DNA of 64,000 nucleotides from the NCBI GenBank assembly GCA_023247795.1, contig JAHFFT010000001.1, positions 2,868 through 66,867 of the forward strand. Direction: 5' to 3'. Below are positions 8,896 to 64,000 of the stretch, piece by piece; the stretch's first letter is position 1; each line of letters opens with the position of its first letter. The stretch comes from Candidatus Omnitrophota bacterium. Its GTDB lineage: Bacteria > Omnitrophota > Gorgyraeia > Zapsychrales > JANLHA01. The position numbers were made by a program, and so were the translations under genes. The notes under the pieces were generated by a model. That model did no database searches, was not told where the DNA came from, and saw nothing but the letters and a program-made list of their open reading frames with translations.

Positions 8896-11400
8896 TTATG
8901 CCCCTCTATTCAATTCCCCCAAACCGTTTAAGGCTCCCAAATGTCCTGGAACAATTTCCAAGGCTTTCATAAATCTTTGCTTTGCCGCACTTTTATCGCC
9001 CTTCTTCAAATCACACCAACCCAACGCGGTATAAGGATCGGCATAAATATCCTGCTCTTTATGCAGCTCGAGAAGTTGATTAAAATATCCGGCTGCCTTA
9101 TCATAATTTTTAGTGTAAAAGTAACTCCAGCCTAAATTATTCAATACCACACTCCATTTCAACCATCCGTCTTCCTTCTCCGGTTTCTTCGATAAGAGCG
9201 GTTCCAGTCGATCAATCGCCCCCTTATAATCACCCTGGATAAAATAGATCGCTCCTAAACCTAAAGAAGCGCTTTCCGAGGTTGGCTCCTTCGCTAATAC
9301 TTTTGCAAATGATTCGGAAGCCTTCTTATAAATGCCCTGATAATAATAACTCCATCCTAACCGGCTATAAAGATCAAACCAGCCCTTTTCTGCGGCAAGG
9401 ATCTTTTGAAAATCCTCCGTCATTACATAATCCGGATAAATGTCGATGGCTTTCGCAAAGGCTTCTTTAGCAGGATCCAAGTTTTTAACTTGATACTGAC
9501 TTAACCCCAAACCATAATAAGGATCGACCCAATAGGGGTTGATATCAATGGCCATTTGAAAGCTTTCCGCGGCCTTAGCGTAATCTTTGATCTTATAAGA
9601 ACTCCAAGCTAAAGCGGTCAAGGCGGAATAATTTTTTGGGCTTTCTGCCACGGCTTTCTCTAAATATTCTTTAGCGCCGACATAATCTTTCCTTTGAAAT
9701 AAAATATTGCCTAAACCACTCAGGGCATCGAGATTTTTAGGATATTCCGCCAATAATTCTCGGAATTCTTTCTCCGCACTATCCTCTTCCCCTAAACGAT
9801 AGTAACACCAACCGATCCCTCCCCGCATGGCCAAGGCCTTATCTTGCGGAATATTTTTACCAGCATTTTGCAGGTCATATTTAAATTGCTTCAAGGCCGA
9901 AAAATAATCTCCTTGATAATAATAACTCCAGCCCAAATCGGTCCGCCCATATTTGGCTTGATCAACGGCCAGCAAACCATTTAAGGCATCCGCATAGCTT
10001 GGATTGAGAGCGAGCACGGCTTTAAATTCTGATTCCGCATCATCAACCTTTTTCAACATATAATACGACCATGCCAATCCATCATGCGGATCAATCCAAT
10101 TAGGCTGATTCGTAACCGCCTTTTTAAACTCTTGTGCTGCTTCACTGTATTGTCCCAGTTTATAATCCGCCCACGCCAGGCTTGACTGGGCATCGCTTTG
10201 CACTAAATAGCTGGCAATGGTCCCGGGGATTTGGACATATTCGCTCACCGCCGGTAAAGTCGGATTCTCCTTTAACGATTGCTTAAAATATTTTGCAGCA
10301 TCTTCAAATTGACCCAATTTATAAGCGGCATAACCCAAACCCCTTAAGGTTTCGCCATTCTTTCCTAAAACTTTAGAAGCCTCATCAAATTCTTGGGCCG
10401 CGAGTTGAAAATACCCTTGTTGATAATAACTCCATCCAACCACATTATAGAGATCTTGCCAATCCGTCTGAATTTTGAGAACATTCTTAAATTGTTCATC
10501 GGCGACAAAAGGATAAATGTTGATGGCCGTCGTAAAATACTCCTTTGCCTTCGGGAAATCCTTCAAATCAAAATACGTCCAGGCCAAACCTTTATAAGGT
10601 TCAACCAAATAGGGGTTCAATTGTCGGGCCTTCTCAAACTCTGCTTTTGCCCTCTCAAAATCAGATTTGCGATTATAAATCCACCCGATCTTGCTTTGCA
10701 CATCCGGTTGATAAGCTTGAACATCAAGCGCTTTCTGCAAAAAAACCAAGGCCTGATCAAAATCATTCATCTCAAAATACGAAAAACCTATTCCTTTGAT
10801 GGCATCAAAACTATCCTTTTGCAGACTCAACACTTGCTCAAAATTATGAATGGCTTCCTGGTATTGCTTGTTGAAATGATACGACCATGCCAATCCAGTG
10901 TGAACCCTCCACAATTCTATATTCGGTAAACGTCCACTGGTATCAGCAACAATGGCTTCAAAGATAGTAATCGCCTTGCTATAATTCCCGGCATAATAAT
11001 ATTGCCAAGCACGATTAAAAGGGCGATAACGCCAAGCACTCACTTCTGCCATCCCGTTCAGGGAACCGGGGAAATATGGATAAATTTGTAGACATTTTTT
11101 AAAATTCTCTTCCGCAGTAACAAATTCGCCTTTTTGTAAATAATTCCATCCTAACCCATCATAGGGATCACACCAATCCGTGTGCTCCTGAACTTCTTTC
11201 TGAAATACCCCAATCGCTTGATCATATTGTTTATCATAATAAAGATCCCAAGCCTCTTGGGAAACGGTGGGCTCTTCCTTTTTATTGTTTTCCTCAGCCA
11301 CGGCCTTTTGAACATTGATGAAAACATTGATCAAAACAAAGATCGTCACAACGACAAAACATAACATCGTTTTACAGCTCATTAATTTTTTTAAACGCAT
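8896..11400 (-). CDS. Large TPR-repeat protein with N-terminal signal/anchor
   Basis: 834 aa. Hydrophobic N-terminus MLCFVVVTIFVLINVFINVQKAVA, followed by about 20 repeats of the W/G-WxY...A...F.KAL...P TPR pattern. Confidence 0.8.
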   Translation of the reverse strand: MRLKKLMSCKTMLCFVVVTIFVLINVFINVQKAVAEENNKKEEPTVSQEAWDLYYDKQYDQAIGVFQKEVQEHTDWCDPYDGLGWNYLQKGEFVTAEENFKKCLQIYPYFPGSLNGMAEVSAWRYRPFNRAWQYYYAGNYSKAITIFEAIVADTSGRLPNIELWRVHTGLAWSYHFNKQYQEAIHNFEQVLSLQKDSFDAIKGIGFSYFEMNDFDQALVFLQKALDVQAYQPDVQSKIGWIYNRKSDFERAKAEFEKARQLNPYLVEPYKGLAWTYFDLKDFPKAKEYFTTAINIYPFVADEQFKNVLKIQTDWQDLYNVVGWSYYQQGYFQLAAQEFDEASKVLGKNGETLRGLGYAAYKLGQFEDAAKYFKQSLKENPTLPAVSEYVQIPGTIASYLVQSDAQSSLAWADYKLGQYSEAAQEFKKAVTNQPNWIDPHDGLAWSYYMLKKVDDAESEFKAVLALNPSYADALNGLLAVDQAKYGRTDLGWSYYYQGDYFSALKQFKYDLQNAGKNIPQDKALAMRGGIGWCYYRLGEEDSAEKEFRELLAEYPKNLDALSGLGNILFQRKDYVGAKEYLEKAVAESPKNYSALTALAWSSYKIKDYAKAAESFQMAIDINPYWVDPYYGLGLSQYQVKNLDPAKEAFAKAIDIYPDYVMTEDFQKILAAEKGWFDLYSRLGWSYYYQGIYKKASESFAKVLAKEPTSESASLGLGAIYFIQGDYKGAIDRLEPLLSKKPEKEDGWLKWSVVLNNLGWSYFYTKNYDKAAGYFNQLLELHKEQDIYADPYTALGWCDLKKGDKSAAKQRFMKALEIVPGHLGALNGLGELNRGA

Positions 11401-11489: not shown

Positions 11490-12611
11490 TTATAAAGAAT
11501 TGGTCTTTTGATCGACTTGCTCAAGTCCGGTGAGAGAACTCTTATACGAAGGAGTAAGAGCTAAGGCTTTATTGAACATCACTCGAGCAGCTTTCATACG
11601 TCTACGACTCGTTTTATTTTTTCCTTTGGCGGTCTTATCATTATCCCAGTAAAGATACGACCAACCGATCTTATCGTAAATTTCAGCATTTCTTTCATAC
11701 TTCAAAGCCTGTTTATAAATCCCTATGGCTTCTTGATATCGCTTTAAAGAAAACAAGCAATCTGCCCATTTGATTCGGGCGTCATTCCATTGCGGCTTCA
11801 GCCGAGTGGCCATTCGAAACTCTTTTAAGGCCTTTCCAAAATCCTGACGGCTAAAATTAAGATAACCTAATGCCCGATGAGCTTCCGGCTCAGTTTTAAC
11901 ATGCACGCCCCTTTGATATCGCATCCCTTTAACTAAGGCCCGCTGGAGATATTTTTCGGCAATCTCAACTTCTCCCTTTCGAAAATAACACCAACCCAGA
12001 CCTGCATAGGCATCAGAAGAATTAGAATCTATACTCAACGCTTGTTCAAAATAGTTAATGGCTTGGGCCCAATCTGATTTTTTAAAATTTGCCCAACCTC
12101 TCCCGGTATAAGCATCAACGACCTTAGGATCCACTAAAACCAAATCGCCAAACGTTTTGCTGGCACTCTCATAATCACCTTTACCAAAATAGGCCCACCC
12201 TAGCAAAGTCAAGGCCTCTGAACTCAAGGGATTCTGTCTCACTGCTTTCTCAAAATATTCAATGGCTTTCTCGTGATTGTTAACCGATAAATAATACGAC
12301 CCTTCTGAGGCATAACCTTTGCCTCGACGATCTCCGGTGGAAGTAAAAATGGGTTCTTCTCCTACATTAACAACGGTCATCGCCATTTCAACGGGCTTTG
12401 TTCCTATTTCATAAAGTGACTTAAAAAGTTCCGGTACCTGCTTGACATTCGTCATAGACTTCGCAACATCAACCGGTAGCTTCGCGATTCCCACAACCTC
12501 CTCTTTGACCAGTTTCGGCACTTTTTTAACGGTGGCAGCACAGCCGGTCATCATTCCTCCAGCCAGCAGCAGGGTGATGAATTGCAAACATGGGTATGAG
12601 GAAATTTTCAT
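11490..12611 (-). CDS. TPR-repeat lipoprotein
   Basis: Lipobox-like LLLAGGMMTGC at the N-terminus. Multiple TPR units (GWAYFGKGDYESA, GWANFKKSDWAQA, GWCYFRKGEVEIA). Confidence 0.75.
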   Translation of the reverse strand: MKISSYPCLQFITLLLAGGMMTGCAATVKKVPKLVKEEVVGIAKLPVDVAKSMTNVKQVPELFKSLYEIGTKPVEMAMTVVNVGEEPIFTSTGDRRGKGYASEGSYYLSVNNHEKAIEYFEKAVRQNPLSSEALTLLGWAYFGKGDYESASKTFGDLVLVDPKVVDAYTGRGWANFKKSDWAQAINYFEQALSIDSNSSDAYAGLGWCYFRKGEVEIAEKYLQRALVKGMRYQRGVHVKTEPEAHRALGYLNFSRQDFGKALKEFRMATRLKPQWNDARIKWADCLFSLKRYQEAIGIYKQALKYERNAEIYDKIGWSYLYWDNDKTAKGKNKTSRRRMKAARVMFNKALALTPSYKSSLTGLEQVDQKTNSL

Positions 12612-12628: not shown

Positions 12629-14227
12629 TTAAAACTCGATATCCAAACCAAATTCCACTTGATAGGCGCCATCGGCCTCGCCATCCCGTCGAGGAGTAGG
12701 CGCGAATATGTTATTGGCGGCAGTATCGGCGCGGGTTTCCTTATAATAATCTCCCGGGAAAAAATATCCTGACAAAATACTAAACTTTATGGCTTTGGTG
12801 ATTTGATAACTAGCAAAGACATCCAATTCCTGGCCCAAGTCTTTTGAAAAAGTTTTTAAATTCCCATTGCCATCCAGACCCCATCCCGGTTCTTTTGAAC
12901 GCAAATACCAATAATCCACGCCGATATACCATTTTTCAAGTGGGGTATAATCAAATCCAACGGTCGAAGCAATCAAATTTTCAAACATGAAAGGGTCACC
13001 AAAGGTCCCGGGACGAGCGACGCCAAAATTGACCGCGTATCCGCCTGCCATTGCCACATAAGGACCAAACTGTTTCTGATAATGCGTATCGGTTAAATTG
13101 GTGTTTAATGGGGAAAAAACACTGAAGGCCTCATTTTCATTACTGGTGAGGGTAAGTTCATTATAATTCTGCGCGTTGAATCGGTTACCGGAGGCCATAA
13201 AAAATTTCGTCTTCGGTTTGAACGCCCCCAAATCATAACTGGCATCCGCAACCAAAAGATAACCTTTATGTTCGATATCATTTTGTGCCGTGTTGATGGC
13301 CTTCGCCTTTCCCAAATTTTGGTCCCCTTCAAACCCAAGATTCAGACGGTCAAAATTCAGTTTTAAATAAGCCCCTGGTGTCACAAGATCTTCGTTTTTC
13401 ACACGGGTGCTGAATCGACTTGCACGCGCACCTTCTGGTGTTCGATCCCTCAGCCAGCCGGTATAAAGTTGTAACCGTTGTTTACCCAATTTGAATGTCG
13501 TATCCGCCGTATAAAAGTAAGCATTGGTGTCATTCCAATCATTGACCTTCTCATGATCAATGACTTTTCCTAAATGAATACGATTATTCAGATCTTCTTT
13601 TTCCCAGTGGACATTCCAATCGAGTGATTCATTAACTCCAGAAAGGGTTAGCCCATAATTTTCATATTTTCCACCCAAGGCAATGTTATGACCAAGATCG
13701 CGTCCGTAAGGATACAGACCAAATTTGAAATTGACATCTTTCGTTGAATTCACCGGAACTTCCAGCCAGGTTTCTCTTAATCGAGGATATAAATCTGAGT
13801 TTTGGTACCAATGATACCGTCCAAATAAAGAGTTGATGCCACGGCTCCCATAAAGCGGGGCATCATAATCGGCGCGCCCCCTTCTTTCTACAAAAGAATA
13901 AAACTCAAGGCCGGAAAGATGGCGGAGATCAAAAGTAAAGTCATAAGCTAACCCAAGATAACTGGTCTTATCATTGTTATTCGCTAAATCAAGATCAACC
14001 GTATTGTTCACTAAATTATAAGACGTACGCAGGTGCGCTCCGGAATGAAATTTCCAATTTGATTCATCCAATAAAAAAGGATGTTTCTCAACATCCAAAT
14101 CTTTAACGTCTTTAAAATAACTCTGAGCATATATAGAGGAAGGCAGGGCAAATAAGGAAAGGAAAATAAAAATATTGACGAAAGGCTGAAGGAAAACTTT
14201 TTTACTTTTTTTGTTTTTACAAGTCAT
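12629..14227 (-). CDS. Outer-membrane beta-barrel protein (porin/exporter-like)
   Basis: The ORF-track start at 14269 is TTG. ATG 14227 gives MTCKNKKSKKVFLQPFVNIFIFLSLFALPSSIYA (signal peptide). Alternating amphipathic strands run throughout, and the C-terminus is FGLDIEF (aromatic terminal residue typical of OMPs). Confidence 0.65.
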   Translation of the reverse strand: MTCKNKKSKKVFLQPFVNIFIFLSLFALPSSIYAQSYFKDVKDLDVEKHPFLLDESNWKFHSGAHLRTSYNLVNNTVDLDLANNNDKTSYLGLAYDFTFDLRHLSGLEFYSFVERRGRADYDAPLYGSRGINSLFGRYHWYQNSDLYPRLRETWLEVPVNSTKDVNFKFGLYPYGRDLGHNIALGGKYENYGLTLSGVNESLDWNVHWEKEDLNNRIHLGKVIDHEKVNDWNDTNAYFYTADTTFKLGKQRLQLYTGWLRDRTPEGARASRFSTRVKNEDLVTPGAYLKLNFDRLNLGFEGDQNLGKAKAINTAQNDIEHKGYLLVADASYDLGAFKPKTKFFMASGNRFNAQNYNELTLTSNENEAFSVFSPLNTNLTDTHYQKQFGPYVAMAGGYAVNFGVARPGTFGDPFMFENLIASTVGFDYTPLEKWYIGVDYWYLRSKEPGWGLDGNGNLKTFSKDLGQELDVFASYQITKAIKFSILSGYFFPGDYYKETRADTAANNIFAPTPRRDGEADGAYQVEFGLDIEF

Positions 14228-14407
14228 TCTCAAAGATTGTTGAGATTCAAATTTTATAACATCTCGCAAACATTTTTTATCCTAAGCATTTTTCGTTTCA
14301 ATTGCAAGTTTTTTTTAAATTTTTTGTGGGACAGGCCAAAAATCCCGGGTATCAGGGATAAAAGATGTTGCTGGTAAAAGTCGTAAATCCTTTTTCTCGT
14401 CGAATGT

Positions 14408-14677: not shown

Positions 14678-15778
14678 TTAATTGGGTCGCGGACCATCAC
14701 TGCCAAGGCCGCCCGGCTGACCACCAACATGATTGGCGTTATTCAGACCCGCGCCGCCCAGACCAGGTCTTTGCGTACCCTGACTTGATAATACCCCAGG
14801 CTTCGGCATGACAGGACCGACAGGCCGATTGCCATTTAACTCTTGATGGCCGGCTCCTTGCCCTTCCATTTGGGGAGATTGGTCGGACTGCATATTCCGC
14901 ATTTGACCTTGTTCTTCTTGACTATGCTCTTGCATCGCTCCCTTCGGTGCTTCATGTTGTACTTTTATCCCTCGCATTTTCTCATACTCGCTTTTCATTT
15001 GTTCTCGACGATCTTGCTGCTCTTCATGAGACGCTTGCATTTTCTCTTGATGCTGCTCTTTCATTTCCTGCAGCTGTTCATGCTCAGCATCCATCTGCTC
15101 TCGATACTCCTGTTGCTCTTCACGAACCGCTTGCATTTTCTCTTGATGCTGCTCTTTCATTTCCTGCAGCTGTTCATGTTGCGCCTTCATTTCTTCTCGC
15201 TGTTGCTGAAATTGTTCTTTATAAGCCTCTGCGCGTTCCGAATTAGCTAACGGCGGTTTTTGGTTAGGCCCGCTTATCAGTGGTCTATTCATTTCGCCCA
15301 TTGAAGCATTGGGACGAGAACCTTCTTGCTGATCACCCATAGGGCCATTATCACGTTGCCCCATCTGATCAGGTTGATTCATTGGTTGCTGCGAACCTTG
15401 ACGGTCATTATCTGTTCGTGGACCAACCTGAGAATTGCCTTGTTCACCTTGCTGCGCACCCGATTGCGGACGATTTTGTTCTCCACCCATACGATTGCCC
15501 TGAGATCCACCCTGGCCTTGCATTCCCGATCCGTTGGGCCGATCGTTATTCATACCAGGATCTCCTCTTTGGCCTCCTGGACCGCCAGAACCACCAGGTC
15601 CACCTGCTCCGCCTTGACCACCTTGATGTCCAGCGTTCATACCCTGTCCCGGACCGCCATGTCCACCTGGACCTCCAGCTCCCGGACCACCACCCGGCCG
15701 CGGCCCTTGCTGGGCGAAAACCACACCCGAAAGCGCTAAGCAAAAAATTCCAATCAAAGCCATGATTCTCATTTTCAT
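14678..15778 (-). CDS. Secreted low-complexity G/P/Q/E/M/H-rich protein
   Basis: Signal peptide MKMRIMALIGIFCLALSGVVFAQQ. A good SD (AAGGAAAGG) precedes the ATG. Composition-biased throughout, with the internal repeat EQLQEMKEQHQEKMQA. Confidence 0.75.
   Translation of the reverse strand: MKMRIMALIGIFCLALSGVVFAQQGPRPGGGPGAGGPGGHGGPGQGMNAGHQGGQGGAGGPGGSGGPGGQRGDPGMNNDRPNGSGMQGQGGSQGNRMGGEQNRPQSGAQQGEQGNSQVGPRTDNDRQGSQQPMNQPDQMGQRDNGPMGDQQEGSRPNASMGEMNRPLISGPNQKPPLANSERAEAYKEQFQQQREEMKAQHEQLQEMKEQHQEKMQAVREEQQEYREQMDAEHEQLQEMKEQHQEKMQASHEEQQDRREQMKSEYEKMRGIKVQHEAPKGAMQEHSQEEQGQMRNMQSDQSPQMEGQGAGHQELNGNRPVGPVMPKPGVLSSQGTQRPGLGGAGLNNANHVGGQPGGLGSDGPRPN
15032..15178. repeat. Intragenic direct repeat (51 bp identical, 96-bp period)
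   Basis: 15032..15082 and 15128..15178 both read CGCTTGCATTTTCTCTTGATGCTGCTCTTTCATTTCCTGCAGCTGTTCATG. Confidence 0.9.
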
Positions 15779-57538: not shown

Positions 57539-58720
57539 TTATTCATTCAAAGATTGTATCCGTTGATAACAATCAAGAACATTCAGGTAGGAATGAATTG
57601 AAACATCTTCCCTGTTAAATTCATTTTTGCCTCCATAAACGACAGCCCGGCCCAACATATCTTTGCCAGCCAAACGCTTTAGAAAATCAAGGCCTTTAAA
57701 AAATTCCTCATGTATGGTCTGCCCCGCTTTGATTTCGACACTCATAATCCGGCGGGCCTTTTCGATGATCAGGTCCACCTCGCTGCCGTGATTATCCCTA
57801 AAAAAATAAAGCGGCGCCTCTCGCCCCTGCGACCAAAAATATTTCAAGAATTCAATGACCACAAAATTTTCAAACAAGGCACCCCGCAAAGGATCACGGC
57901 TCATCTGAGAAGACTTTTCGATCCCCAGCAAATATGCCGCGAGTCCGGTATCGTAAAAATACATTTTAGGGGCCTTAATGATCCTTTTCTTCCAATTACG
58001 GTAATAAGCTGGAAGCAAAAAAACCACATAGCTCGCTTCCAGAACAGACATCCATTCCTTGATCGTCGTATGCGAAACCCCTAAGTCATTGCTGATACTA
58101 GAGAGGTTAAGTATTTGACCGATCCGCCCGGCGCATAGTTTCAAAAATTTCTGGAATGAAGAAAGGTTCTTGACATTGATGACCTGCCGCACGTCCCGTT
58201 CCACATAGGTCGCGACATAGTCGCGCATCGCGTCGGAAGGGTCAATCTTTTGATCAAAAATCCTGGGGAAAAACCCTGTGTGGACAATGTCATCCGCTGT
58301 ACGCTTTTGGATCAAAGAACGGATTTCCTCCACCGAAAAGGGCAAAAGTTTCAGGACGGCCGTACGGCCGGCCAAAGACTGCCGAATGGACCGCAATAAC
58401 AAAAGGTTCTGACTACCACTGAGAATATACAGACCATTTTTGTTACGTTCATCGACAATCCCCTGAAGATAAGAAAGGATTTCCGGGACCCGTTGGACTT
58501 CATCCAGAATAGCTCCTTCAGGATAACGGCCCAGAAACCCCCTGGGATCCTGCATGGCTAGTTCACGAATATCCGGAATCTCAAAAGAAAGATAAGATTT
58601 TTTGGGGAAAACTTTACGGCACAACGTGGTTTTGCCGGATTGCCTAGGCCCGGTCACCGAAACAACCGGATAATGTCTGGCGGATTCCCTGAGTTTGGCT
58701 TCAAGAATTCTAGTGATCAT
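57539..58720 (-). CDS. AAA+ ATPase with C-terminal PD-(D/E)xK nuclease-like domain (AAA_14/DUF4143-type architecture)
   Basis: ATG 58720 gives MITRILEAKL. Walker A GPRQSGKTT, Walker B AILDEVQRVPE, and C-terminal GSEVDLII...MSVEIKAG (D...ExK). The ORF-track extension to 58864 reads through repeat copy 2. Confidence 0.75.
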   Translation of the reverse strand: MITRILEAKLRESARHYPVVSVTGPRQSGKTTLCRKVFPKKSYLSFEIPDIRELAMQDPRGFLGRYPEGAILDEVQRVPEILSYLQGIVDERNKNGLYILSGSQNLLLLRSIRQSLAGRTAVLKLLPFSVEEIRSLIQKRTADDIVHTGFFPRIFDQKIDPSDAMRDYVATYVERDVRQVINVKNLSSFQKFLKLCAGRIGQILNLSSISNDLGVSHTTIKEWMSVLEASYVVFLLPAYYRNWKKRIIKAPKMYFYDTGLAAYLLGIEKSSQMSRDPLRGALFENFVVIEFLKYFWSQGREAPLYFFRDNHGSEVDLIIEKARRIMSVEIKAGQTIHEEFFKGLDFLKRLAGKDMLGRAVVYGGKNEFNREDVSIHSYLNVLDCYQRIQSLNE

Positions 58721-58791
58721 AAATAAACCATACCACATCTTGTACAGTTTGCAAGTTAAATATTCAATTAGTACAGATTTGTTCTCAAACC

Positions 58792-58909
58792 TTAATTCCC
58801 AAAAAGGTCGACAGATCGTAAAGCGGCTGGACATTGATGATGACCGGGACAAAACCTGGAGCATTTTGCAATTGTTTGAGCAGGGCGGGATCGAGATGAA
58901 ATTGGATTT
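58792..58909 (-). repeat. Orphan copy 2 of the 3' end of gene 60206..64000 (118 bp, about 89 percent identical by hand count)
   Basis: Aligns base for base with 60210..60327, with 13 mismatches by my count. It retains the frame KIQFHLDPALLKQLQNAPGFVPVIINVQPLYDLSTFLGIKV-stop. No homologous sequence lies upstream of it. Confidence 0.85.
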
Positions 58910-58976
58910 TTATGGAATACACAATTCTTCGGTTGTTTTAAAAATATTATTGACAAAGGCTCCATATTCGTCGAAA

Positions 58977-60161
58977 ATGGAGTCTATGCAATACATATTA
59001 AGACTGACCGAAAACGATATCCAAAACTCTTTACAACGCAATAAAAGTGTTTTATTGTTGGGCGCTCGTCAAACCGGTAAAACAACCCTCATTCAGCGGC
59101 TGCCGGCCGACTTGTCGATTTCCTTTGTCCGTCCGGATGTCAGGCAGCAATACGAAAAAAACTCCACGCTTTTAGTGGGAGAAGTTGAAGCACTAAAGAG
59201 CAAAACGCCCGCGGCTCGCCCCTTGGTTGTTTTAGATGAGGTCCAGCGTGTCCCAGAAATACTCGACATCGTTCAGGATCTCATTGATCGAAAAATAGCC
59301 AACTTTATTTTAACCGGATCCTCCGCAAGAAAATTACGCCATGGATCTCACATCAACCTTCTTCCGGGAAGAGTGACGGCTTTAAAACTAAATCCACTTA
59401 ACATTCAAGAAATTCCGCAAACAGATCTTAAAACGCATTTGCTCTACGGCTCTTTGCCGGCTATTCATCAGGTTACTTCACTGAAAGACAAAGAAATCGA
59501 CCTAAGCTCTTATGTCATCACCTACCTCGAGGAAGAAATCCGTGCCGAAGCGATTGTTAGAAATTTAGGGCCGTTTGCCCGCTTTCTGGAATCAGCGGCT
59601 ATTGAATCAGGAAAGGTCGTGAACTTCAGAAAACTTTCTCAAGAAATCGGTGTTGCCCACACAACCATTGCCTCTTATTATCAAATTTTGGAAGACTGCC
59701 TGATTGTCGAAAAAATAATGCCACTGACAAAAAGCGAAACACGCAAAAAGCTGACCAAAACCCATAAATATATCTTTTTCGATATGGGCGTTCGACGGCT
59801 CACCGCGCATCAAAATACTCAATTGACCAAAGAAATGTGGGGATATCTGTTCGAACAATTCATTGGACTTCAGCTCATTCAACTAGCCGAGCTCTCCGAT
59901 AAAAATATCCAGATCAAATTTTGGCGAGATCCCGATGGCCCGGAAGTAGACTTTATTGTCGACAACAATCATAGCTACTTGCCTCTAGAAGTCAAATGGA
60001 CAAAAAGCCCTACAGCAAAAGACGTTAAACATCTGAAAGTATTCTTAAATGAATATCCCAATGCTAAACAAGCCTATCTCATCTGCCAATGTGAGCGGGA
60101 TGTTGCCCTTGAAAAAAACATTACCGCAATCCCCTGGCAAAAAATAAAAAATATTTTTTAA
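58977..60161 (+). CDS. AAA+ ATPase with C-terminal PD-(D/E)xK nuclease-like domain (second, divergent paralogue)
   Basis: ATG 58977 gives MESMQYILRL. Walker A GARQTGKTT, Walker B VVLDEVQRVPE, and C-terminal GPEVDFIV...LPLEVKW. The ORF-track start at 58695 is an antisense read-through of repeat copy 2. Confidence 0.75.
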   Translation: MESMQYILRLTENDIQNSLQRNKSVLLLGARQTGKTTLIQRLPADLSISFVRPDVRQQYEKNSTLLVGEVEALKSKTPAARPLVVLDEVQRVPEILDIVQDLIDRKIANFILTGSSARKLRHGSHINLLPGRVTALKLNPLNIQEIPQTDLKTHLLYGSLPAIHQVTSLKDKEIDLSSYVITYLEEEIRAEAIVRNLGPFARFLESAAIESGKVVNFRKLSQEIGVAHTTIASYYQILEDCLIVEKIMPLTKSETRKKLTKTHKYIFFDMGVRRLTAHQNTQLTKEMWGYLFEQFIGLQLIQLAELSDKNIQIKFWRDPDGPEVDFIVDNNHSYLPLEVKWTKSPTAKDVKHLKVFLNEYPNAKQAYLICQCERDVALEKNITAIPWQKIKNIF

Positions 60162-60205: not shown

Positions 60206-63200
60206 CTATTTAATTCCCAAAAAGGCCAATAAATCGTACAGCGGCTGGACATTGATGATGACGGGGACAAAACCCGGGGCATCTTGCAGTTGCTTGAGTA
60301 GGGCGGGATCAAGATGAAATTGGATTTCACCGTTCTGATTTACTTTCAGGTTCATTTTGTTAGGATCGAAATCAATACCACCAAGCTGATCAGGACGATC
60401 CGACATCTCCGGTGCTGCGTCCTCACCTAACATCAACCGATCCGACGCTCCTCCGCCATTGGGCTTCTGATTTTGTAAACTGTCCTCTGCATTACTTTGC
60501 ACTTCTCTAATTTTAGCTTCAATGCGATTGACCGCGTCAGGGTACAATTTACCTTCAACGAAATCGGCCTCATTCAAAGGAACCCAATATTTCGCTTCAA
60601 TCTTCTCTATCCCAACACCGATTAAATCATTGGAATGGTTTTCAAAATGTTCACGCATCAATGCGAACGCATCGGCTGTAGATAAATATTTTATCATTTT
60701 AATAAAATCCACACTGCTGTTTATCGCAGCAACTTGCTTAGTTAGTCTTTCCTCGATATCCAATTCCATTAATTCTGTCTTGTCATCCAAGGTTGGCGTA
60801 TACTCCCCTAATTTTTGAATATATATTGTATGTTCTTTCCCTTCCTCAATGTCACAAGAATAGCCAATGTTGCGCAAAATAATTGATAATATTTCTTTAT
60901 CCTTATATTCACTGTCAAATAAAATGAACCAACCATCATTCTCAAGGACACGCATAACCTCTTTTAAGACCACCATAAAATCTTTGATCGAAATAAAATA
61001 TACCATCACAAAAGACTCGTTGATAATGTCTATGGACTGATTACTAAATGGTAGCCGACGGAGATCACCATTGACAAGCTGCACACCTGGCAACGATTGT
61101 TTAGGATCGATATCCATATCAATGCCTATCCCTTCTACTTGATCACCTAATTCTTTCCTAAGTTCGACCAACGCCCTGCCTTCTGGACCAGAACCCAAAT
61201 CTAAAACCCGCAATTTACCTGGCGCCTTTCGCGCCAGATGGTCTTTGATCAGCTCCAAATGTTTTAGCAAATAATCCGGTCTATTACTATCACGGGCATA
61301 TTTCTGATGAAACACCTCCCACAAAAAAATCTCGTCTTTCTCAAGAGTCCCCAATTCTTTCAGACGATTTATTAATCTTCCCACAATCTTACCTTGCAAA
61401 AGTTCTTGCATATTAAACTTTCTAAAATATTGGACCATAATCATGCCAAGATGTTCTGGGATTGGCTTTTGAATTCCACTGAAACGAAGCCATCCTTCGT
61501 TTAACAGTCGCACTTTTTCATCCATGCTCAAAGACTCCTCCCCCAATTTAACACTCAAAATTTCTGCGAATTTTTCAACATCATCTCCGGTCTCATTCAA
61601 TATTCCCTGAAATATATCCTGACCAAGCATTAGACGATCCGCTGTTTCTACAGTAGCAGACGGCTCCGCCAAATCCCTCATCGCCATTTCATCTAATATT
61701 TCAATAGAAGGATTCTTTGCCATCCTGATCTGCTCCGGCTCTAAAACCGCGATATGAATATTCCTACTCCCAAACATAACCGCATCTTCATCTTGCAGCT
61801 CTCTCAATCCTGTAAAAAATAAATTATCGTATGCTTTTCCCAAAAATTCTGTGACATTGACATATTCAGGATGCCGTTCAATGACATTCAAAGGTTTTCT
61901 GACATTCAAAAAAGCAGACATTAAAATCTTCTTTACTGTATTAGGGACATATAATTGCTCTCCATTAATTTTTATAAGATGACAATTAATTTTATTTGGT
62001 GCTAATCCATCAAATAAATCAGCAAGCTCTGATTGAACAAACAAATTCTTTCCATCAAAAACTACGATTCCAGGTTTCTTTGTAAACGATACCCGATCCA
62101 GATTCTCTGCGTTTTCGATAAATTCATTCCATTTTTTAAACACTGCAGGCGTATCGGTAAGATTAAACTTTTCTTTTAGCAGAGATAACATGCTTTTTAA
62201 AAATTTAAATCTAAAATAGCTAAATTCATTCACAACAAAATCTCGATCTGAAGAGAAATAAAATGCATGTCTTTCACCAAAATCAAAATTCCTGCGCGCA
62301 TTTTTATCAAATTCATTAAATTCCCTGCCAGTTCCATGATAAAAAATTTTGGGCTCACCGGTTTCGGCATCAATCATTTTCGAGGCTAATTCGGGATGAT
62401 TTATCCAATCTCCAAACCATGCGATAAAATCAGGATCTCTCACTTGTAAAAAATGTAGGAGCCCAAGTTTAGAGGGTTTGCCATTTGGCGCTTTCAATTC
62501 AACCACTTTTCCATCTTGAATTTTAATGTTTCCATTCAAAACTTCTCTATTAAAAATCTGCTTATAAATTTCTATATCAATATGATCATCATATCTTTCT
62601 GTCAATGTTGACAACATCAATCGATCAAATCGCCCAACTTCATCCGCTGTTTCTACAGCGGCAGGCGGCTCCGCCAGATCCCTCATCGCTTGATTGCGCT
62701 CGGTGATCTGCTGATCGAGATCAGCGCTGCTACGCATCTCGATTCGATAGACCATTGCTTGCTCGCTTATCATCTCTTCAACCACTTTTTGGAATAAAAC
62801 CGCTGTCTCCGGCGAAGAATGGATGACCCTTCTGTAAATCTCCCTCTGATTTTTATCATTAATCCGCCAATAGGAAACATATCTCCTTATGAACTCTTCC
62901 ATTGATAAATCCAAAGGAACCCACCCCCATTCCGATTCCGGCAATTGCCTGATGAACGCGATCGTCGCTGCCGGTAAATTCAATCGCCGCGGCAGAACCT
63001 CATTAAAAATGCTGTCGCGGGACGGACTTTCAACGCCAATGGTATCCGCAAATCGATCCAGATGGTATAAACGAAACAGCAAGGCTCCAAGATGATCATC
63101 TCTCTCTTTCATCAGCGCCCTTTCCACAGCAAAATCAAAAAATTCTGCATTCGCAACATTGATTCTCTGGGCAACAAACAGCTCTTTCATAATTTTTTGA

Positions 63201-64000
63201 TGACCTTTTCCAGCAAGTGATTGGTACACCTCCCAAAGCAATCGTACCTGCTGTTTTTCGTTCAAATGTCTTAAAGGGATAAGTTGCTGAAGTCGTCTCG
63301 CCAGTTCCTCAAAATTCCTTGCCGTCATAATTGGATAAATCAATGTGGATGAAGACAGCCCCATCAATTCCGCGATCTTTGTATAAGCCCTTATCAGATC
63401 TCGATAATCTTTTGCCTTTTTAAAAAGTATTTTTTTTCGCGTGTAAATTAAGCTATACGGTGAGACGCTGCTCAAATCGCGATTCTCCAATGCATAAGCA
63501 ATGATTTCATCTTTAAAACGTTTAAAGGCATCGAATTCCGCGTCAAACATCTCAGGAGTTTGATTTGGATTGACATTGATTTTCCTTAAAACATTTTTTC
63601 TAAAAAAATAATTGTGAAGTTCATGATGAAATTCGTGTCTTGAGGTACTGTCGTCTTTAAAAATTTTGGTTTCTTGCAAGCTTTTGGCTAATTTGGGCCT
63701 TGGTAATAGCATAAACCCCACATCTCTGCTATTACTGCTCATAAAACAAACAGCCACTCCATTAAAAATAAATAATTTTTGATCACGGAGCAATTCAAAA
63801 AAAGGATCTTCAACTTCCAGCATAAACACACCCGGTTTGATTTCGATCAAAACTCCAGCTTTCCGATTTGCTTGGACGTCGCTCGGGCCAATCTGATATT
63901 GTTTAATGAACTCTAAAACCTGTTTCAAATCTTCCGCAATCTTCTTTGCTCCCCTATTGAAACCATTTGCAATGATAGCAACTGACAGAAAATACAATAC
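60206..64000 (-). CDS. Large modular protein (at least 1263 aa; 5' end probably beyond the right window edge): HExxH module, YHGT ART-like module, class-I SAM methyltransferase module, shared C-terminal domain
   Basis: The frame is open to the window edge, and the track start is a TTG 3 nt from the edge. HEFHHELH at ~63614..63640. FYHGTGREF at ~62331..62345 and AFYFSSDRDF...SY at ~62247..62266. VLDLGSGPEG at 61179..61207. C-terminal LGGIDFDPNKMNLKVNQNGEIQFHLDPALLKQLQDAPGFVPVIINVQPLYDLLAFLGIK at 60209..60388. Confidence 0.8.
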   Translation of the reverse strand, partial: VLYFLSVAIIANGFNRGAKKIAEDLKQVLEFIKQYQIGPSDVQANRKAGVLIEIKPGVFMLEVEDPFFELLRDQKLFIFNGVAVCFMSSNSRDVGFMLLPRPKLAKSLQETKIFKDDSTSRHEFHHELHNYFFRKNVLRKINVNPNQTPEMFDAEFDAFKRFKDEIIAYALENRDLSSVSPYSLIYTRKKILFKKAKDYRDLIRAYTKIAELMGLSSSTLIYPIMTARNFEELARRLQQLIPLRHLNEKQQVRLLWEVYQSLAGKGHQKIMKELFVAQRINVANAEFFDFAVERALMKERDDHLGALLFRLYHLDRFADTIGVESPSRDSIFNEVLPRRLNLPAATIAFIRQLPESEWGWVPLDLSMEEFIRRYVSYWRINDKNQREIYRRVIHSSPETAVLFQKVVEEMISEQAMVYRIEMRSSADLDQQITERNQAMRDLAEPPAAVETADEVGRFDRLMLSTLTERYDDHIDIEIYKQIFNREVLNGNIKIQDGKVVELKAPNGKPSKLGLLHFLQVRDPDFIAWFGDWINHPELASKMIDAETGEPKIFYHGTGREFNEFDKNARRNFDFGERHAFYFSSDRDFVVNEFSYFRFKFLKSMLSLLKEKFNLTDTPAVFKKWNEFIENAENLDRVSFTKKPGIVVFDGKNLFVQSELADLFDGLAPNKINCHLIKINGEQLYVPNTVKKILMSAFLNVRKPLNVIERHPEYVNVTEFLGKAYDNLFFTGLRELQDEDAVMFGSRNIHIAVLEPEQIRMAKNPSIEILDEMAMRDLAEPSATVETADRLMLGQDIFQGILNETGDDVEKFAEILSVKLGEESLSMDEKVRLLNEGWLRFSGIQKPIPEHLGMIMVQYFRKFNMQELLQGKIVGRLINRLKELGTLEKDEIFLWEVFHQKYARDSNRPDYLLKHLELIKDHLARKAPGKLRVLDLGSGPEGRALVELRKELGDQVEGIGIDMDIDPKQSLPGVQLVNGDLRRLPFSNQSIDIINESFVMVYFISIKDFMVVLKEVMRVLENDGWFILFDSEYKDKEILSIILRNIGYSCDIEEGKEHTIYIQKLGEYTPTLDDKTELMELDIEERLTKQVAAINSSVDFIKMIKYLSTADAFALMREHFENHSNDLIGVGIEKIEAKYWVPLNEADFVEGKLYPDAVNRIEAKIREVQSNAEDSLQNQKPNGGGASDRLMLGEDAAPEMSDRPDQLGGIDFDPNKMNLKVNQNGEIQFHLDPALLKQLQDAPGFVPVIINVQPLYDLLAFLGIK
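61637..62689. repeat. Intragenic ~49-bp direct repeat encoding the inter-module linker
   Basis: 62641..62689 and 61637..61685 (CCGCTGTTTCTACAG..GCAG.CGGCTCCGCCA.ATCCCTCATCGC) encode AMRDLAEP(P/S)A(A/T)VETAD, each followed by DRLML. A third DRLML is encoded at ~60428..60445. Confidence 0.8.

Follow-up and report, generated by a model that had tools for sequence, protein, structure and literature searches.

A signal-peptide-bearing Omnitrophota protein with three predicted enzymatic modules belongs to a family with conserved ends and exchangeable cargo

The target of this analysis was a gene on the minus strand at the end of a 64,000-nucleotide stretch of DNA (hereafter the window) from Candidatus Omnitrophota bacterium (NCBI GenBank assembly GCA_023247795.1, contig JAHFFT010000001.1, positions 2,868 to 66,867). 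Its full-length product, P0001, starts with a signal peptide and carries a putative metallopeptidase (module A), a predicted ADP-ribosyltransferase (ART, module B) and a predicted S-adenosylmethionine (SAM)-dependent methyltransferase (module C). These lie between N- and C-terminal domains shared by a large family of proteins with otherwise unrelated middles. P0001 is interpreted here as a multi-effector that is exported and acts in a cell serving as host or prey, and we give this interpretation about an even chance of being correct.

Full-length protein and scaffold family

The frame of the target open reading frame (ORF) is uninterrupted, as judged from the translation, from its stop codon at 60206-60208 to the edge of the window (Table 1). 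A first-pass annotation made from the letters alone had placed the N-terminus beyond that edge, which was correct. In a search of 5.8 billion proteins, P0001 (1797 amino acids, aa; encoded on a 137,881-bp NCBI contig) was 100% identical across 100% of the 1264-residue window translation. It supplies 533 further N-terminal residues, which comprise the signal peptide, a conserved domain of ~320 aa and the start of module A. The signal peptide is of the Sec type (MSCQRSVSLTVIACFLISSLNLPVVFA, followed by QEG). Every motif quoted in the annotation was located at verified coordinates (Table 1; additionally WFGDW at 62405-62419).

The family follows one plan: a signal peptide ending in A-Q, an N-terminal domain of ~320 aa ending in RKYFSGG, a hypervariable cargo, and a C-terminal domain of ~60 aa with the consensus GGIDL...F.FDPAM..QLQNAPGF.PVIINIQP...FLG. 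All marks of the family are found in P0001, including the RKYFSGG-ending N-terminal domain and the junction motif D-x-A-M described below. No Pfam or NCBIfam model matches the N-terminal or the C-terminal domain, and no account of this scaffold family, or of the family of module A, was found in the literature searched.

A scan of 185,579 species genomes gave 309 loci with the N-terminal domain. In a protein database at least 1518 family proteins were found at E<=1e-10, of which none has a Pfam annotation for this domain. The best 80 of the 309 loci were examined for neighbouring genes, and 97 family ORFs were extracted from them. The majority of these 80 loci are labelled Omnitrophota or Omnitrophica, and many others have generic or doubtful labels. 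Nearly all complete ORFs among the 97 end in the same C-terminal domain, and a signal-peptide-like N-terminus, typically ending in A-Q, is present in 71 of the 94 members with a complete N-terminus. Many genomes hold several copies of the family, with tandem arrays of up to five.

The window itself contains a second member, a paralog of 2093 aa (Table 1), the N-terminal domain of which is 60% identical to that of P0001. The common C-terminal domain postulated in the annotation was found in this ORF by BLASTP (E=7e-10 for the C-terminal 60 residues) and in 81 family sequences altogether. The idea that several unrelated catalytic modules sit on a common C-terminal tag proved true for P0001 and is the rule across the whole family. 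For the ~1650-aa cargo of the paralog, no significant Pfam or NCBIfam match was obtained. A lipoprotein signal was also considered and rejected: the VIAC of P0001 fits a lipobox loosely, the paralog, P0009 and others have no Cys, and the conserved A-Q suits signal peptidase I.

The minimal member, P0103 (438 aa), consists of the N- and C-terminal domains joined directly, with no cargo. Its predicted structure has a pLDDT (predicted local distance difference test) score of 67, with values of 80-93 in the core of the N-terminal domain and a poor C-terminal domain. Two further proteins, P0032 (347 aa, on a 246-kb contig) and P0016 (350 aa, on a 43-kb contig), have the signal peptide and the N-terminal domain only and stop just past RKYFSGG. 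Each may come from an independent gene for this domain or from a longer gene interrupted by a stop codon or frameshift. Tandem arrays within ~20 kb were seen at the loci L069 (five copies), L046 (four), L032 (three) and L010 (two), and the cargo differs in each copy.

At L015 (NZ_JAUSCJ010000031.1), at L038 and L063 (DYOU01...) and on many contigs with names starting CAZ or CAY, family genes were observed under the labels Phenylobacterium sp., Candidatus Elulimicrobium (placed by NCBI in the Patescibacteria group) and 'uncultured Planctomycetales'. Either these contigs are mislabelled or mis-binned Omnitrophota or the family is distributed more widely.

Predicted activities of the modules

Module A spans P0001 residues ~410-971 in its entirety. 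An exhaustive HMMER search of 1.84 billion representatives returned 62 homologs, 39 of them at E<=1e-10 (homolog set P0128-P0188). The majority stand alone, with a length of ~515 aa and no signal peptide; the first 120 residues of these stand-alone homologs align to P0001 ~415-533, and module A thus corresponds to a complete captured gene. Six stand-alone homologs were looked up, and both of those with an organism name belong to Patescibacteria or Microgenomates. A few others lie within giant proteins, namely P0159 (3069 aa) from Patescibacteria and P0132 (3419 aa) and P0144 (3938 aa) from Omnitrophota.

In an alignment of 22 sequences, the only invariant residues are one Gly, the H-E-x-x-H, a Glu located 39 residues past the second His inside RDExxAY, and a Tyr four residues further. 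A spacing of 39 residues falls within the range of gluzincins. Module A is probably a gluzincin-type metallopeptidase, the invariant positions being those expected of such an enzyme under selection, and the HExxH zincin-type motif read from the letters in the annotation is borne out by this conservation. None of the 22 members has a Pfam match, no NCBIfam model matches module A, and the family profile found nothing among PDB sequences at E<=10. In P0001 the module could work as an effector; alternatively, it could be the release protease of this one protein. A role as a family-wide processing protease was ruled out, since none of the 97 family ORFs (80 loci) carries module A though most have the junction motif.

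Module B is a predicted phage-type ADP-ribosyltransferase of the H-Y-D clade. The Pfam model ART-PolyVal (PF18760) matched the module with 42.3 bits (cut-off 31.2; E=1.6e-10) and the full-length protein with 38.9 bits, the match being limited to profile positions 2-45 of 140. Five homologs were found in the databases, all of which carry PF18760. A hidden Markov model (HMM) built from six homolog domains, with the window sequence excluded, gave a one-domain match to module B over positions 14-177 of 193 with 109.5 bits, so that the whole ART domain is present. The domain contains a long insertion (Table 1), and the homolog P0003 has an insertion at the same position.

The YHG around the strand-1 His is found in five of the six homolog domains (YRGG in the sixth), as is the G-x-YF[TS] around the strand-2 Tyr (GFHFT in P0006). 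For strand 5, MAFFT pairs the YDN of module B with the YDG of the family and HMMER pairs the FTGL five residues later, which gives Thr; the Asp is also absent from two of the six homolog domains.

The ART-PolyVal family is defined by a strand-1 His, a strand-2 Tyr and a strand-5 Asp and belongs to a clade, Tox-ART-HYD2, that is related to PARP and diphtheria toxin, yet is not of the H-Y-E type (Iyer et al. 2017, PMC5512222). The annotation had assigned module B to the ARTs of phage and conjugative-element polyvalent proteins, and the Pfam match above cut-off and the phage relatives agree with this. Its comparison with the H-Y-E signature of diphtheria toxin and exotoxin A had to be abandoned, because the module belongs to the H-Y-D clade (PMC5512222); the lack of a catalytic Glu, named there as a ground for refutation, is for the same reason no valid argument against ART identity.

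Using tblastn against 50,697 phage records, 13 matches to module B residues 31-131 were obtained at 32-59% identity. Their annotations include a crAss-like 'RNAP associated protein fused to zincin protease' and a 'DarB-like antirestriction protein'. Two of the closest homologs of module B lie on phage-like contigs, and the only PHROGs matches of the target were the N-terminal ART motif and a tRNA methyltransferase-like one. No description of an ART in Omnitrophota was found in the literature searched. On one of the phage-like contigs (L081, 1-9548), the ART-PolyVal gene P0004 has two ART domains and lies directly after a gene of 5507 aa with a NADAR domain and before a gene of 1953 aa, with an HNH/NUMOD4 homing endonuclease nearby. 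This contig pairs functions related to NAD and ADP-ribose around giant phage proteins.

Module C is, judged by its motifs and profile matches, a class I SAM-dependent methyltransferase, as the annotation had proposed from motif I. Two Pfam models scored above their cut-offs (Methyltransf_11, 34.7 bits vs 21.2; Methyltransf_25, 31.2 bits vs 27), and the PDB entry 1xxl (YcgJ) was matched with E=8e-4. NCBIfam methyltransferase matches were weak and none reached the equivalog cut-off.

Table 1. Coordinates of the target gene, its modules and motifs, and the paralog within the window.
Feature	Coordinates	Strand	Remarks
Target gene, C-terminal 1264 codons and stop	60206..64000	minus	frame open at window edge
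Module A, part inside the window (P0001 aa 534-971)	62687..64000	minus	putative gluzincin-like metallopeptidase, uncharacterised family
HEFHHELH, HExxH motif (P0001 H655, E656, H659)	63614..63637	minus	H, E, H invariant in 22 aligned homologs
FKDEIIAYALEN with invariant E698 and Y702	63482..63517	minus	E698 is candidate third zinc ligand
48-nt direct repeat, upstream copy (gene orientation)	62642..62689		family D1, 92% identity
Linker 1, MRDLAEPPAAVETADEVGRFDRLML, junction motifs NQAM...DRLM	62612..62686	minus	from translation
Module B, ART-PolyVal cassette (P0001 aa 997-1306)	61682..62611	minus	Pfam PF18760
YHGT, predicted strand-1 catalytic His (P0001 H1088)	62330..62341	minus	aligned to YHG of homologs
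AFYFSS, predicted strand-2 Tyr (P0001 Y1114)	62249..62266	minus	aligned to G-x-YF[TS]
Insertion of ~85 residues in ART domain	61937..62191	minus	HMM alignment gap, module B residues 141-225, between strand 2 and FLNVRKP strand
AYDNLFFTGL, predicted strand-5 catalytic Asp region	61805..61834	minus	D1258 (MAFFT) or T1263 in its place (HMMER)
48-nt direct repeat, downstream copy (gene orientation)	61637..61684		1005 nt from partner
Linker 2, MRDLAEPSATVETADRLML, junction motifs EMAM...DRLM	61625..61681	minus	from translation
Module C (P0001 aa 1326-1719), predicted methyltransferase core and flanking helical regions	60443..61624	minus	Pfam core ~60908-61216
VLDLGSGPEG, motif I (SAM-binding glycine loop)	61178..61207	minus	located in translation
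DRLML junction motif ahead of C-terminal domain	60428..60442	minus	from translation
C-terminal family domain, GGIDF...FHLDPALLKQLQDAPGFVPVIINVQPL...FLGIK	60209..60382	minus	found in 81 family sequences
Paralog, 2093 aa	16019..22300	minus	same signal peptide, N-terminal and C-terminal domains, unrelated cargo

Composition, repeats and exchange of the ART cassette

The annotation had judged the region AT-rich by eye, which the computed values confirm. The target region has a GC content of 0.39 vs 0.41-0.49 (mostly 0.44-0.49) in the remainder of the window. At third codon positions (GC3), the modules have values of 0.27-0.41 vs 0.52-0.58 in the housekeeping ORFs of the window, with 0.41 for module A, 0.38 for the methyltransferase and 0.27 (0.271) for the ART module, the overall GC content of which is 0.334. 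The linkers (0.42-0.48) and the C-terminal domain (0.49) lie above the modules.

The two copies of the 48-nt direct repeat bracket the ART module and one linker, forming a 1005-bp cassette. An ortholog, P0002, from an independent ENA assembly was aligned to the window protein, and the best local alignment, which covers 37% of the query, had 89% identity. P0002 shares both end domains, module A and the methyltransferase with P0001. The ART cassette is missing from P0002, with the break exactly at the repeat, and a second methyltransferase copy is found in its place. The gene order of the P0002 contig matches that of the window (AsmA-like gene, family gene, DUF4143 ATPase, mechanosensitive-channel protein, 390-aa protein). 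Synteny together with differing content means that cargo was changed in place between close relatives. The ART module is a recent, phage-related acquisition which entered as a 1005-bp cassette.

These data bear on the polyvalent-protein reading of the annotation. A genuine polyvalent protein of a phage or conjugative element would belong to a prophage or integrative element and, packaged or transferred along with DNA, would be injected into a new host to disarm it. P0001 carries at least two unrelated effector domains on one polypeptide, one of the criteria used for polyvalent proteins, and a metallopeptidase-like domain, an ART-PolyVal domain and a methyltransferase on one chain are a typical combination of these (PMC5512222). 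The relatives of the ART in crAss-like phage virion proteins and DarB-like proteins and the AT-rich composition would also fit. However, P0001 starts with a Sec signal peptide, both of its end domains are specific to Omnitrophota, and its locus is chromosomal and syntenic in two independent assemblies beside genes for AsmA-like, mechanosensitive-channel and membrane proteins. The surroundings contain no phage, integrase or type IV secretion genes, and strongly foreign composition is confined to the ART cassette. We consider this origin very unlikely and do not retain the polyvalent-protein framing for P0001.

Cargo and junction motif

The cargo between the scaffold ends ranges from almost nothing to about 3000 residues, family proteins being 0.4-3.9 kilo-amino acids (kaa) in size, and the middle of one member bears no relation to that of another. 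In 59 members, the cargo matches 70 different Pfam families, among which methyltransferases are commonest. Other cargo includes HATPase_c, PPDK_N, Glu/Leu/Phe/Val dehydrogenase, EPSP synthase, radical SAM, HD, HAD, transketolase, HEAT and TPR domains, and additional members carry WD40 with PPDK_N, or AAA_5. No homolog of modules A, B or C was found in the 97 family ORFs or in the 120 proteins listed from the N-domain search; the exhaustive search found module A in two distant family members, P0143 and P0144.

In one member, P0038 (620 aa, on a 1.29-Mb contig), the cargo opens with an internal twin-arginine-like signal (SRRKFLKTASLGGAAALPAIP), and the part that follows resembles an alpha/beta-hydrolase by eye. 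A complete gene for a protein exported by the twin-arginine (Tat) pathway appears to have been captured here behind the N-terminal domain, and the internal signal suggests capture of whole genes.

The borders of the cargo are marked by the motif D.[AL]M[LIVMATK], observed 48 times vs 7.5+-2.8 in shuffled sequences. Its density per 1000 aa is 5.3 over the 70 residues that follow the N-terminal domain and 4.6 over the 60 that precede the C-terminal domain vs 0.11 inside the cargo. An Asp is located two positions before the A-M pair at 65-74% of the junction A-M sites. A D-x-A-M motif at every boundary between modules throughout the family was ruled out, the density inside the cargo being that of the shuffled background.

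P0001 has the junction motif after each of its modules, and the copies inside it are better taken as border junctions that were kept. Its three enzyme units, joined by linkers that bear these motifs, would each have been captured independently. Two junction motifs per linker (Table 1) would be the leftover expected when cassettes with their own border junctions are joined end to end. Cassette accretion with such leftover copies could also be taken as the mark of a decaying mosaic, i.e. a non-functional recombinant gene that gathers fragments, and the ambiguous Asp and the ~85-aa insertion of the ART domain might be read in the same way. This we regard as highly improbable, given an uninterrupted ORF of 1797 codons, invariant catalytic-type residues retained in all three modules, an ortholog (P0002) with the same ends, module A and methyltransferase, and a homolog (P0003) which shares the insertion at the same place of the ART domain.

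Conserved termini around hypervariable cargo, multi-copy tandem arrays and the exchange of cargo between orthologs would also fit a polymorphic toxin for interbacterial competition. In such a system a conserved trafficking part would bring variable toxic domains into rivals, with a cognate immunity protein guarding the producer; ART and metallopeptidase domains are common in polymorphic toxins (PMC5512222). In the present family, however, the variable part is central and the C-terminal 60 aa are conserved. Around the family genes no neighbour is conserved, the most frequent cluster occurring in 8 of the 80 loci, and the gene 3' of the target is a convergent DUF4143 ATPase instead of a conserved downstream partner. 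Most of the cargo does not resemble toxins, examples being EPSP synthase, Glu/Leu/Phe/Val dehydrogenase, dikinase, HAD and TPR, and no trafficking or toxin-delivery domain is among the Pfam or NCBIfam matches of the target. A role as polymorphic toxin is thus unlikely. The toxin framing of the annotation was dropped, as no conserved immunity-like partner was found at the 80 loci and the cargo of the family consists mostly of ordinary cytoplasmic-type enzymes and repeats.

Proposed function

In the interpretation favoured here, P0001 would leave the cytoplasm via Sec, and the N- and C-terminal domains would form a common scaffold for export (across the outer membrane), anchoring or delivery of all cargo. 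The cargo enzymes would work within the cytoplasm of a different cell, which these putatively host-dependent nanobacteria use as host or prey. Proteins with several cargo modules would arise through recombination at the sequences coding for the junctions, and the junctions may also be processing sites at which modules are freed.

The localisation of the activity is argued from cofactors. An ART needs nicotinamide adenine dinucleotide (NAD+), a methyltransferase needs SAM, and other cargo needs ATP, NAD(P)H or SAM. Since NAD+, SAM, NAD(P)H and ATP are not expected outside cells, the cargo is most plausibly active in the cytoplasm of another cell. Such an action is consistent with the lifestyle of Omnitrophota, which were proposed to be host-dependent or predatory (PMC10066038).

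Several points weigh against this interpretation. No gene for secretion, translocation or processing is conserved beside family genes in the 80 loci. The model of the P0103 scaffold has no significant structural match in PDB or in the viral models of BFVD. The third catalytic residue of the ART is ambiguous between two alignment methods, and the AlphaFold2 model of module B, computed from an alignment of seven sequences, has a pLDDT of 42.9, which is too low for confirmation of the fold. The putative peptidase activity of module A, which has no Pfam or PDB relative, is suggested by motif conservation. Repeat domains (TPR, HEAT, WD40) and housekeeping-type enzymes make up much of the cargo and would suit a surface or periplasmic scaffold just as well as effectors. 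In other members the motif inside the cargo is at background level, so that a role in module release is not general.

Some of these points favour an envelope scaffold that serves the producing cell. The exported proteins would remain in its periplasm or at its surface as carriers for coat, adhesion or extracellular enzymes, and their catalytic modules would be structural, degenerate or active on extracellular substrates. A Sec signal peptide with no identifiable translocation apparatus or partner gene, cargo which is often made of protein-binding repeats (TPR, HEAT, WD40) and the uncertain strand-5 Asp of the ART would agree with such a scaffold. Giant proteins of Omnitrophota with the same domain pool were moreover proposed as coats or adhesins (PMC10066038; bioRxiv 10.1101/2023.11.21.568195). 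On the other hand, the ART, SAM methyltransferase, radical SAM, dehydrogenase, dikinase and AAA cargo needs cofactors not expected extracellularly, and the ART His and Tyr, the HExxH with its Glu, and motif I of the methyltransferase are all kept. We consider an envelope scaffold the main alternative, possible if rather doubtful.

A wider form of the multi-effector interpretation is put forward tentatively, with a probability clearly below even. The N- and C-terminal domains and the D-x-A-M junctions would constitute a previously undescribed cargo-capture and delivery system across Omnitrophota, in which whole genes from the cell's own metabolism, of Patescibacteria type and from phages would be spliced between the scaffold halves. 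The products would be exported into host or prey and possibly cleaved at the junctions, and P0001 would be a three-enzyme effector with a recruited phage anti-host ART. If this holds, a bacterial parasite has recruited an ADP-ribosyltransferase that phages direct against their hosts.

As to gene flow, an exported protein of a cellular organism has here gained a module that phages normally turn against their hosts. Omnitrophota are uncultured, ultra-small and thought to depend on or prey upon other microbes, and the family offers accessible candidates for interaction factors. With two short conserved ends and a junction motif as a simple rule, the cargo repertoire of the entire phylum can be mined. 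Should the effector interpretation be wrong, the result would be a large uncharacterised envelope family that carries cofactor-dependent enzymes outside the cytoplasm, which would itself need explanation.

Neighbouring genes

Two AAA_14/DUF4143 ATPase genes precede the target gene in window coordinates, at 57539-58864 (minus strand) and 58695-60161 (plus strand). They are divergent, and their longest ORFs overlap by ~170 nt at the 5' ends; the second one ends 45 nt from the stop codon of the target. Only one such ATPase is present on the P0002 contig, which means that one copy was recently gained or lost.

Downstream of the paralog, a 366-aa ORF without Pfam match (14678-15778) is followed by genes for an Alginate_exp-like outer-membrane protein (12629-14269) and for two proteins rich in TPR, at 11490-12611 and at 8896-11400, all on the minus strand. 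An FMN reductase and a protein with PMT_2 and TPR domains are encoded upstream of it. Large ORFs of the whole window are nearly all on the minus strand. GC skew is negative in each 2-kb bin and cumulative skew drops monotonically across the window, which places the window on a single replichore with strong gene-strand bias.

Comparison with known systems

That conserved trafficking parts can be combined with exchangeable effector modules is already known in principle; for the present scaffold family, no Pfam or NCBIfam model and no description in the literature searched was found. P0001 follows a logic like that of the multifunctional autoprocessing repeats-in-toxin (MARTX) toxins and the polyvalent proteins, and it fails the defining tests of both and of the polymorphic toxins.

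With polyvalent proteins (PMC5512222), P0001 shares the combination of a zincin-like peptidase, an ART and a methyltransferase on one chain, module B being a member of the same ART family. It differs in its chromosomal and syntenic locus, its Sec signal peptide and its Omnitrophota-specific scaffold, and delivery together with DNA is therefore not its route. Polymorphic toxins (Rhs and contact-dependent inhibition, CDI, systems in the classification of Zhang and Aravind) likewise combine conserved parts with variable enzymatic cargo in multiple copies, including ART and metallopeptidase cargo. In the present family, by contrast, the cargo is internal, no immunity gene was found at the 80 loci, and non-toxin enzymes and repeats dominate.

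By analogy, the arrangement may also be compared to MARTX toxins, which, as generally known, have conserved ends around central effector modules with linkers and vary by recombination. P0001 shows no sequence similarity to them and matches no repeat-region or cysteine protease domain in Pfam or NCBIfam. It bears a Sec signal where MARTX toxins use type I secretion, and processing at its linkers is hypothetical. Module A resembles the gluzincins (thermolysin, anthrax lethal factor, botulinum neurotoxin light chain) in having an HExxH and a downstream Glu, both invariant, and differs in having no Pfam or PDB sequence match, even when searched by family profile.

A further comparison is with the Archaeovorins (West-Roberts et al. 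2023, bioRxiv 10.1101/2023.11.21.568195), which come from the same phylum and draw on the same unusual domain pool (methyltransferases, HATPase_c, PPDK_N, Radical_SAM, HEAT, TPR, HAD_2 and AAA_5). Module A also occurs inside giant proteins of Omnitrophota and Patescibacteria. The present family is set apart by its own N- and C-terminal domains, which the passages of the preprint consulted do not describe. Archaeovorins are characterised there as giant proteins with many transmembrane helices, whereas the members of this family have 0.4-3.9 kaa, and the signal-peptide region is the only such segment noticed by eye. With more than 1500 members, a common exported scaffold and freely exchanged cargo, proteins of this size are tractable where the giants are not.

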